This document shows, one piece after another, positions 10,155-11,130 of a stretch of DNA of 42,916 nucleotides. The notes below the pieces were generated by a model that had not been told where the DNA came from, made no database searches, and was given only the letters and a program-made list of their open reading frames with translations. This DNA is from Escherichia phage PhiR55_1. A program made the position numbers and the translations under genes. The stretch is taken from the sequence record PV340571. One strand, 5' to 3'. Positions within the stretch are counted from its first letter, which is position 1. Each line of letters begins with the position of its first letter.

Positions 10155-10807
10155 TGAGTAATAAATATTGCCAGGCGCTGGTGGAACTGCGGAACAAACC
10201 AGCCCATGAACTGAAGGAAGTGGGCGATCAGTGGCGCACGCCGGACAACATTTTCTGGGGAATTAACACCCTGTTTGGCCCGTTTGTTCTGGATCTGTTC
10301 ACTGACGGTGATAACGCCAAATGTGCTGCGTATTACACGGCGGAAGACAACGCGCTGGCGCATGACTGGTCAGAACGTCTTGCGGAGCTTAAAGGGGCTG
10401 CCTTTGGTAATCCCCCATACAGCCGCGCCAGTCAGCATGAGGGGCAATACATCACCGGCATGCGTTACATCATGAAACATGCCAGTGCCATGCGTGATAA
10501 GGGTGGGCGCTATGTTTTCCTGATCAAAGCTGCCACCAGCGAAGTGTGGTGGCCGGAAGATGCAGACCATATTGCTTTTATTCGCGGGCGTATTGGTTTT
10601 GAACTGCCTGCCTGGTTTATCCCGAAGGATGAGAAGCAGGTGCCGACAGGCGCTTTCTTCGCTGGTGCTATTGCTGTTTTCGACAAGACCTGGAAGGGAC
10701 CGGCAATCAGCTACATCGGGCGCGATGAACTTGAGGCATGTGGTGAGGCGTTTTTGGCGCAGGTTCGCCAGCAGGCAGAAAAACTTGTCAGGGAGATGGC
10801 GGCATGA
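10154..10807 (+). CDS. Phage Dam-type N6-adenine DNA methyltransferase
   Basis: Catalytic NPPY motif (GNPPYSR) and WRTPDNIFW...FGPFVLD block typical of the phage Dam family; TAATG overlap with the upstream gene. Confidence 0.7.
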   Translation: MSNKYCQALVELRNKPAHELKEVGDQWRTPDNIFWGINTLFGPFVLDLFTDGDNAKCAAYYTAEDNALAHDWSERLAELKGAAFGNPPYSRASQHEGQYITGMRYIMKHASAMRDKGGRYVFLIKAATSEVWWPEDADHIAFIRGRIGFELPAWFIPKDEKQVPTGAFFAGAIAVFDKTWKGPAISYIGRDELEACGEAFLAQVRQQAEKLVREMAA

Positions 10808-11130
10808 CGACGTTAACTCAATGCCAGCAGCAGGTGCTGGATATGCTGATTTCTTACCAGCAAGAGCGTGGCTTTCCGCCAACCAATCAGGAGGTGGCAA
10901 CCATGCTGGGATACCGTTCAGTGAATGCAGCGGTGGAGCATCTTCGCGCACTGGAGAAAAAAGGCGTCATCACGATAAAGCGTGGCGTGGCCCGGGGGAT
11001 AACGCTTCATACCGCAGTGAAGGACGACGACAGCGAAGCGGTCGGTATCATCCGCGCACTGCTTGCCGGTGAGGAGAACGCCAGGCTGCGTGCAGCCCAC
11101 TGGTTACATGAGAGGGGCCTGAAAGTATGA
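10804..11130 (+). CDS. LexA N-terminal DNA-binding-domain homolog lacking the S24 cleavage domain
   Basis: Residues 1-70 align, from memory, with the E. coli LexA N-domain (LTxxQQxVxDxI...GxPPTxxEVAxxLGxRSxNAAxEHLxALxxKGVIxIxxGxxRGIxL). The protein ends at 108 aa with a short helical tail; ATGA coupling at both ends. Confidence 0.6.
   Translation: MTTLTQCQQQVLDMLISYQQERGFPPTNQEVATMLGYRSVNAAVEHLRALEKKGVITIKRGVARGITLHTAVKDDDSEAVGIIRALLAGEENARLRAAHWLHERGLKV

Follow-up and report, generated by a model that had tools for sequence, protein, structure and literature searches.

A LexA-type DNA-binding protein with a helical tail in place of the protease domain, encoded in the nin region of Escherichia phage PhiR55_1: a possible RecA-insensitive LexA surrogate

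Introduction

In Escherichia coli LexA, the C-terminal domain is responsible for dimerisation, self-cleavage and contact with activated RecA (RecA*), and in operator-bound LexA an extensive interface between the DNA-binding domains (DBDs) acts together with DNA binding (PMC3159453). Cleavage leaves an N-terminal fragment, residues 1–84, which is a weak DNA binder and is subject to degradation by ClpXP/Lon (PMC3159453). Among phage proteins that consist of a LexA DBD only, gp6 of the Bacillus thuringiensis tectivirus GIL01 has been characterised. It is encoded in an early operon, acts alongside host LexA-controlled promoters, binds a non-LexA palindrome (GaCACA-N-TGTGaC) via Lys38 and activates the late promoter (PMC6182141). 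Here, we describe a gene for a 108-amino acid (aa) protein of this general kind in the genome of the lambdoid, temperate Escherichia phage PhiR55_1 (sequence record PV340571). The whole stretch of 42,916 nucleotides that was analysed is referred to as the window, and coordinates refer to it unless stated otherwise. The protein, hereafter the LexA-like protein, combines a LexA-type winged helix with a two-helix tail, and it may act as a RecA-insensitive surrogate of LexA during lytic growth.

The LexA-like protein differs from E. coli LexA in several respects. It has no S24 peptidase/dimerisation domain, no Ser119/Lys156 dyad and no RecA* interface, it contains Val44 in place of Glu44, and its gene most likely belongs to a delayed-early operon instead of lying behind SOS boxes of its own. 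In its expected behaviour, i.e. in not being inactivated by RecA*, it would resemble non-cleavable LexA Ind- alleles (e.g. G85D and S119A). These alleles retain the C-terminal dimerisation domain. It also resembles the N-terminal product of LexA cleavage (residues 1–84) with ~20 residues added; unlike that fragment, it has a helical tail that is under selection and probably confers stability and dimerisation. In contrast to the LexA-like protein, gp6 is 66 aa long and lacks a C-terminal tail, its host is Gram-positive, and the virus that encodes it belongs to another realm.

LexA-type DNA-binding domain

The gene and the parts of its product are as follows (AF2, AlphaFold2; pLDDT, predicted local distance difference test score):

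10804–11130, + strand: gene for a LexA DBD-only protein (PHROG 362); complete open reading frame (ORF) with an ATG start, 108 aa
10804–11007, + strand: LexA-type winged helix-turn-helix (HTH), residues 1–68 (PF01726 and AF2 model)
10921–10959, + strand: recognition helix, residues 40–52 (VNAAVEHLRALEK), with Ser39 just before it (alignments)
11008–11022, + strand: acidic flexible linker, residues 69–73 (HTAVKDDD region; low pLDDT)
11023–11112, + strand: two amphipathic helices, residues 74–103, in place of the S24 domain (AF2 model)

Residues 1–65 match the Pfam profile LexA_DNA_bind (PF01726) over its entire length (positions 1–65 of 65; E = 2.6e-19, 69.2 bits with a cut-off of 23.7), and the E. 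coli LexA structures 1LEA, 3JSO and 1JHH were matched at E values of ~1e-15. The AF2 model of the protein has a mean pLDDT of 84.5, with ~89 for the winged helix, which is composed of helices 6–22, 28–35 and 40–52 and wing strands 56–58 and 66–68. When this part of the model was compared with the LexA–DNA complex (3JSO) using Foldseek, 67–68 residues were superimposed with a root-mean-square deviation (rmsd) of 1.0 Å and 50% identity. The NCBIfam equivalog model for LexA (TIGR00498) was aligned only at positions 1–91 of 203 and gave 70.3 bits versus a cut-off of 110.95. The protein is thus not LexA proper, since it lacks the S24 domain and a conserved scissile site and falls short of the equivalog cut-off.

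The residues of LexA that contact the operator are Ser39, Asn41, Ala42, Glu44 and Glu45 according to PMC13416735, which cites Knegtel 1995; Asn41 is also named as an operator contact in PMC5999292. Four of the five are kept in the LexA-like protein (Ser39, Asn41, Ala42 and Glu45), and Glu44 is replaced by Val. The recognition-helix pattern S-x-N-A-x-x-E-H-L of E. coli LexA is therefore shared, and His46, Lys53 and the wing residues Arg64, Gly65 and Ile66 are retained as well. In an alignment of 18 sequences, Ser39 and Asn41 do not vary. Judged from these alignments, the DBD clearly belongs to the LexA type of gamma-proteobacteria and departs from it consistently at one place, position 44.

Helical tail in place of the protease domain

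The LexA-like protein ends at residue 108 and has no match to Peptidase_S24 (PF00717). When the whole window was searched by tblastn with the C-terminal domain of E. coli LexA, no S24 remnant was found in any frame near 10.8–11.6 kb, and the sole weak match was the S24 domain of the phage cI. There is also no room for such a remnant, since the stop codon of the gene overlaps the start codon of rusA. A sequence-only reading of the window had described the gene as coding for a protein with a LexA N-terminal domain in its first ~70 residues, without an S24 domain or an Ala-Gly site and hence not cleavable upon RecA activation. The ORF is present exactly as described, the searches and the structural superposition confirm its first part, the S24 domain is indeed missing, and the conclusion that the protein cannot cleave itself stands because it has no protease domain. 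The statement on the Ala-Gly site was literally wrong. Ala88-Gly89 is present (...RALLAGEE...), and HMMER aligns this dipeptide with Ala84-Gly85 of LexA (...RVAAGEP...). It is, however, not conserved: close relatives have LLANE or LLVGE at this place, more distant relatives have MVERE, LLTRK or MIDDQ, and in the AF2 model the dipeptide is located at the C-terminal end of a predicted helix. For these two reasons we do not regard it as a cleavage site, and the idea of a relic site that is used in trans was rejected.

The winged helix and the tail are separated by a segment with pLDDT values below 50 (residues 71–75), which also carries the length differences in the family alignment. It is followed by helices 74–88, in which the Ala-Gly dipeptide is found, and 93–103, both predicted with pLDDT of ~88–90. 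The 38-residue tail is conserved in relatives of 40–50% identity, with Ala97 and Leu101 invariant. Its hydrophobic stripe is formed by Ala79, Val80, Ile82, Ile83, Leu86 and Leu87 in the first helix and by Leu95, Ala97, Trp100 and Leu101 in the second. We read the model as indicating more hydrophobic surface than would be needed for packing the two helices against each other, and on this basis the tail may form a dimer interface, i.e. serve as a replacement dimerisation module. In line with this, the tail is confidently predicted as helical, conserved and under purifying selection (see below), as one would expect of an interaction module that is required.

Family, distribution and selection

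The protein matches phrog_362 ('transcriptional repressor') over its full length, with residues 1–108 aligned to the 106-position profile and the tail included (E = 2.6e-59); at NCBI the family is called 'LexA family transcriptional regulator'. The product of the corresponding ORF in Escherichia phage PhiR40_1 (PV340560), which is essentially identical to PhiR55_1 over the 23 kb examined, is 100% identical. The gene was found with megablast in 2233 of 5426 complete E. coli genomes (~41%), in up to four copies per genome, and with tblastn in 62 phage records, including those of cdtI, SfII, SfIV, SfV, mEp460 and Stx2a-, Stx2c- and Stx2k-converting phages. The members from SfV, SfII, SfIV, cdtI, mEp460 and the Stx2 phages are 95–100% identical to the LexA-like protein. 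They have its length, and their genes likewise precede rusA in the nin region. The gp43 protein of mEp390 shares these features at 47% identity and matches the same PHROG profile. Full-length, tail-bearing relatives of 40–50% identity occur in Cronobacter, Kosakonia, Enterobacter, Cedecea, Klebsiella and Salmonella, only within Enterobacterales, so the architecture of DBD and tail is kept down to 40% identity in other genera. The gene described here is an abundant and already annotated prophage gene, a member of PHROG 362 that nothing sets apart from the other members.

All 57 distinct alleles, obtained from 81 copies, are intact at 108 codons. The ratio of nonsynonymous to synonymous polymorphism (pN/pS) is 0.07 for the whole gene, 0.03 for the DBD and 0.12 for the tail (residues 71–108), and both halves of the protein are under purifying selection.

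The LexA-like protein does not belong to the family of gp6. BLASTP gave no alignment between the two proteins, and their profile matches are reversed: gp6 matches phrog_3502 with E = 1.8e-21 and phrog_362 with only 2.8e-05, and for the LexA-like protein the values are 4.1e-15 and 2.6e-59, respectively. The broader kind is widespread among phages, as a Foldseek search of viral models returned many LexA DBD-only proteins of 65–150 aa. Some proteins of 140–350 aa in the representative library contain two separate LexA DBD matches (P0128, P0135, P0141, P0144, P0148, P0156, P0159 and others); these tandem winged-helix proteins may be single-chain pseudo-dimers.

The names given to the family are based on homology only. 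They include 'RecA-mediated autopeptidases' for orf48 of cdtI, which is wrong, and 'unknown' for orf42 of SfV. Other public names are inconsistent: 'SOS-response repressor and protease LexA', 'LexA repressor', 'Rrf2 family transcriptional regulator' and 'hypothetical protein'. A literature search for experimental work on the enterobacterial family found none and returned only the studies of GIL01 gp6. Among the PADLOC defence models, the LexA-like protein had a single marginal match at the level of the winged helix, to a CARF-associated model (E = 4.7e-4), and membership in a defence system was rejected.

Operon and synteny

The gene lies between two others on the same strand:

10121–10807, + strand: phage Dam-type N6-adenine methyltransferase gene (PF05869, E = 1.1e-45), upstream of the LexA-like gene
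11127–11516, + strand: rusA, Holliday-junction resolvase gene, downstream of the LexA-like gene

The TGA stop codon of the Dam methylase gene overlaps the ATG of the LexA-like gene (ATGA), and the TGA of the latter overlaps in turn the ATG of rusA. A GGAG sequence is located 9 nt 5′ of the LexA-like start codon, and no sigma-70-like promoter was predicted before the gene on the + strand between 9600 and 11500. The overlaps on both sides and the lack of a predicted internal promoter indicate that the gene is most likely part of the rightward delayed-early (nin-region) operon and is not expressed from its own promoter. Translation of the protein would then be coupled to that of the upstream methylase and the downstream rusA, and from its position in the operon the protein would be made after infection or prophage induction. 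Late transcription in this phage was assigned to Q, with a pR′-like promoter (~14322–14349) and a tR′-like terminator (14386–14398).

RefSeq phage records often give the adjacent Dam methylase the wrong name, 'phosphoadenosine phosphosulfate reductase'. In some database proteins (P0023, P0092 and P0098), the Dam methylase domain (PF05869) and a LexA DBD form one chain; such fusions probably result from a frameshift or from read-through where the two genes overlap (ATGA), or from errors in gene calling.

The LexA-like gene was invariably found within the nin region, with the replication genes on one side and Q on the other, and rusA usually follows it directly. The module of PerC-like, LexA-like, RusA, DUF968/HNH-like and Q genes (9660–13725 in the window) is kept down to ~44% identity of the LexA-like protein. 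Of 80 IMG/VR loci (L171–L250) sampled from the diverged P0129/mEp390 clade, the LexA-like proteins of which have this identity, 78 carry rusA as the next gene downstream, 76 have DUF968 downstream and 66 have a PerC-like gene ahead of the LexA-like gene. The neighbourhood is similar in mEp390 and Klebsiella phage ST846-OXA48phi9.1, with DUF968 at most two genes downstream. The position of rusA is less constant: it is not adjacent to the LexA-like gene in the Klebsiella phage, and it is upstream in Edwardsiella phage EPP-1.

SOS boxes in the window and in a related phage

The window contains the following strong SOS boxes and genes associated with them:

41577–41596 and 41605–41624: tandem SOS boxes TACTGTGTTTGTATACAGTG and AACTGTATGGATAAACAGTG (21.1 and 22.1 bits), directly upstream of dinI
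41315–41563, − strand: gene for a DinI homologue, 82 aa (PF06183, E = 1.1e-19)
6349–6368: near-perfect SOS box TACTGTTTTTACATACAGTA (25.1 bits), inside cI, in the part coding for the HTH–S24 linker
5885–6577, − strand: gene for the CI repressor, HTH and Peptidase_S24 (E = 5.9e-19), with Ala-Gly, Ser and Lys motifs (...SASAG..., ...GDSM... and ...VKRL...)
14889–14908: SOS box TACTGTAAAAATAAACAGTG (23.0 bits), in codons 3–9 of a gene for a 350-aa N6/N4 methylase (14881–15933)

The sequence CTGT-N8-ACAG has five matches in the phage versus 0.54–0.58 expected, a number that was reached in none of 100 to 200 shuffles. Only the N8 spacing is enriched, and no other spacing or orientation of CTGT half-sites stands out. 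Four of the boxes score 21–25 bits (training median 20) with an approximate matrix trained on known E. coli LexA sites (Lewis 1994; Fernandez de Henestrosa 2000). The fifth match, at 7579 in rha, scores below 10 bits and was treated as a chance occurrence.

The tandem boxes lie between the start codon of dinI and the stop codon of the integrase gene (41625–42722, − strand), and together with dinI they look like a LexA-controlled moron at the end of the prophage. The box inside cI is the best-conserved nucleotide block of the linker across cI alleles of 69–76% identity (SfII, ST64B, Flotzy, Kp4871-1 and phiNP); the conservation includes synonymous third positions, and the flanks diverge. No promoter was predicted at this box. 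The box in the methylase gene is located downstream of Q and of the pR′-like promoter and terminator, and it is found in identical form in phage cdtI and in 9 IMG/VR loci. From their sequences, the dinI, cI-internal and methylase-gene boxes are plausible candidate targets of the LexA-like protein.

Edwardsiella phage EPP-1 (OQ910326) contains a 24-bit SOS box, AACTGTATGTAAATCCAGTA, at positions 3231–3250 of the extracted locus (L085). The box is intergenic, precedes a TACAAT hexamer resembling a −10 element and heads an operon with a gene for a 71-aa, tail-less LexA DBD protein, which matches phrog_24920 best (E = 3.4e-24) and also phrog_362 (E = 2.1e-20). The next gene is an unannotated 347-aa ORF, and most of the neighbours are unannotated. 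Based on this arrangement, the EPP-1 homologue would be SOS-inducible and is possibly autoregulated.

Other features of the window

A homologue of the YafO-family type II toxin (PF13957, E = 1.9e-21) is encoded at the left end of the window, preceded by a 179-aa ORF (206–745 and 762–1196 for the pair, + strand). The 179-aa ORF has no Pfam match and is annotated as 'YafM antitoxin' in PhiR40_1. No SOS box was found upstream of this pair. The chromosomal yafNO genes of E. coli K-12 are part of the LexA-controlled dinB operon. Between Q and the late promoter, a 148-aa ORF (13810–14256, − strand) with a lipoprotein-like N-terminus (…LLSATIISGC…) has no Pfam or PADLOC match and looks like a moron. 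An 801-aa tail-fibre-like ORF (37530–39935, + strand) contains a long Ala/Ser/Thr-rich stretch with repeated units of the 'AAKTSETNAKSSQT' type.

Discussion

The reading that we favour, with a probability of roughly 0.4, is that the LexA-like protein is a RecA-insensitive surrogate of LexA in lytic growth. Two copies would be joined by their helical tails and by DBD–DBD contacts on the DNA, and the pair would bind SOS boxes of the CTGT-N8-ACAG type, the spacing of which could be read by the DBDs themselves through the interface that they form on the operator. Having neither a cleavage site nor a protease, the surrogate would stay bound while RecA* destroys host LexA. Repression would then be re-imposed in lytic growth on LexA-controlled promoters, i.e. 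those of the host SOS regulon, of the phage dinI, of other box-bearing genes and of LexA-controlled functions of co-resident elements. Occupation of SOS boxes without cleavage is the most economical hypothesis that the sequence offers, as the recognition helix keeps Ser39, Asn41, Ala42 and Glu45. The surrogate reading is also supported by the excess of CTGT-N8-ACAG matches on the phage, four of them strong boxes, by the SOS box that heads the operon with the LexA DBD gene in EPP-1, and by the confinement of the tail-bearing relatives to Enterobacterales, all of which, to our knowledge, use the CTGT-N8-ACAG box.

Several observations weigh against this reading. All tail-bearing members of the family have Val, Ala, Thr, Phe or Leu at position 44, and Glu44 is kept in 16 of the 23 full-length LexAs sampled. 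Replacement of Glu44 could change the specificity of binding, and as it is family-wide, altered specificity has to be reckoned with. No SOS box is conserved beside the LexA-like gene in 160 related loci (80 close and 80 diverged), and autoregulation via an adjacent box was rejected, only the distant EPP-1 homologue having one. The cI-internal box is also found in ST64B, Flotzy, phiNP and Kp48xx phages (e.g. Kp4871-1), all of which lack the LexA-like gene, and its co-variation with the gene was likewise rejected. By analogy, the sole characterised phage protein with a LexA DBD only, GIL01 gp6, would suggest changed specificity and a role as an activator (PMC6182141). These results also bear on an earlier suggestion. 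The sequence-only reading had noted a CI repressor of the RecA-cleavable type and a DinI homologue in the same genome, and had proposed that induction is tuned by them in coordination with the LexA-like protein. Both proteins are encoded as stated, but their coordination with the LexA-like protein finds no support in co-occurrence: the gene travels with many cI types, the cI-internal box occurs in phages without the gene, and no SOS box is conserved beside it.

An altered-specificity phage regulator like gp6, in which the winged helix has drifted towards a phage-specific operator and activates or represses a phage promoter, is the alternative that survives best, and we regard it as somewhat unlikely. 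The loss of Glu44 from the recognition helix across the family and the lack of an SOS box linked to the gene are what such a regulator would lead one to expect. There is a precedent in gp6, a truncated LexA homologue that binds its own palindrome and activates the late promoter (PMC6182141), and the many phages that encode LexA DBD-only proteins of 65–150 aa fit this explanation as well. However, the LexA-like protein is outside the gp6 family and retains four of the five LexA contact residues in a helix of the gamma-proteobacterial type. The late genes of this phage are under the control of Q, with the pR′-like promoter and its tR′-like terminator. In addition, CTGT half-sites show no enrichment in the phage at spacings other than N8, and the analysis turned up no candidate operator.

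The overlap of the stop codon with the start codon of rusA suggests another role, that of an accessory of the nin-region recombination module that targets RusA and/or the DUF968/HNH-like protein to DNA, restrains them there, or regulates their genes. The arrangement in the ~44% clade, in which rusA and DUF968 follow in nearly all loci, and the proximity of DUF968 in mEp390 and the Klebsiella phage agree with this. We nevertheless consider such a role improbable. Genes of lambdoid nin regions are often passed on together as a block without being functionally coupled, rusA is not adjacent in the Klebsiella phage and is upstream in EPP-1, and we know of no LexA-type, sequence-specific winged helix that is a partner of RusA.

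Quite improbable, too, is a dominant-negative effect on LexA, in which a weakly dimerising DBD would compete for half-sites or enter mixed complexes, destabilise repression and thereby promote the SOS response and induction. A mixed complex is sterically conceivable, as the DBD of the phage protein could contact that of LexA on the operator in the way that LexA DBDs contact each other (PMC3159453). A box that is occupied even by a mixed complex would still block the promoter, and the conserved and selected helical tail argues for a self-sufficient binder. Titration of LexA in solution, which the sequence-only reading had also suggested, is not expected and is unlikely, since the C-terminal domain through which LexA dimerises (PMC3159453) is missing from the LexA-like protein. 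A decaying, functionless remnant of a captured lexA, i.e. the truncated pseudogene with S24 remains that the sequence-only reading had considered as a counter-case, would fit the HMMER alignment with LexA, which extends across the linker as far as an Ala-Gly in the corresponding position and is compatible with an origin by truncation of a full-length lexA, but it is refuted by the purifying selection (pN/pS 0.07) and the 57 intact alleles, has against it the presence of the gene in 2233 E. coli genomes, the full-length architecture conserved to 40% identity in other genera and the lack of any S24 remnant, and was rejected as having next to no probability.

If the protein is an ordinary regulator with drifted specificity, it is one more accessory gene of the nin region, and the finding mainly corrects the names 'SOS-response repressor and protease LexA' and 'RecA-mediated autopeptidase'. 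In either case the family offers a natural experiment, in which the protease and dimerisation half has been exchanged for a 30-residue helical hairpin behind a LexA domain. If, as the surrogate reading proposes, the protein re-occupies SOS boxes, it would constitute a phage-encoded SOS off-switch that acts exactly when host LexA is destroyed. We think it doubtful that a RecA-proof surrogate present in ~40% of E. coli genomes switches the host SOS regulon off after prophage firing. If it does, recA, sulA, the error-prone polymerases, colicins, SOS-induced toxins and the LexA-controlled antirepressors of rival prophages would be shut down, and induction hierarchies, toxin output and mutagenesis in polylysogens would be shaped by the surrogate. 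With its presence in Shiga-toxin- and Cdt-converting phages and in ~41% of the complete E. coli genomes, the gene could then have a bearing on the release of toxin triggered by antibiotics, on the competition among prophages that share a host, on colicin release and on SOS mutagenesis.

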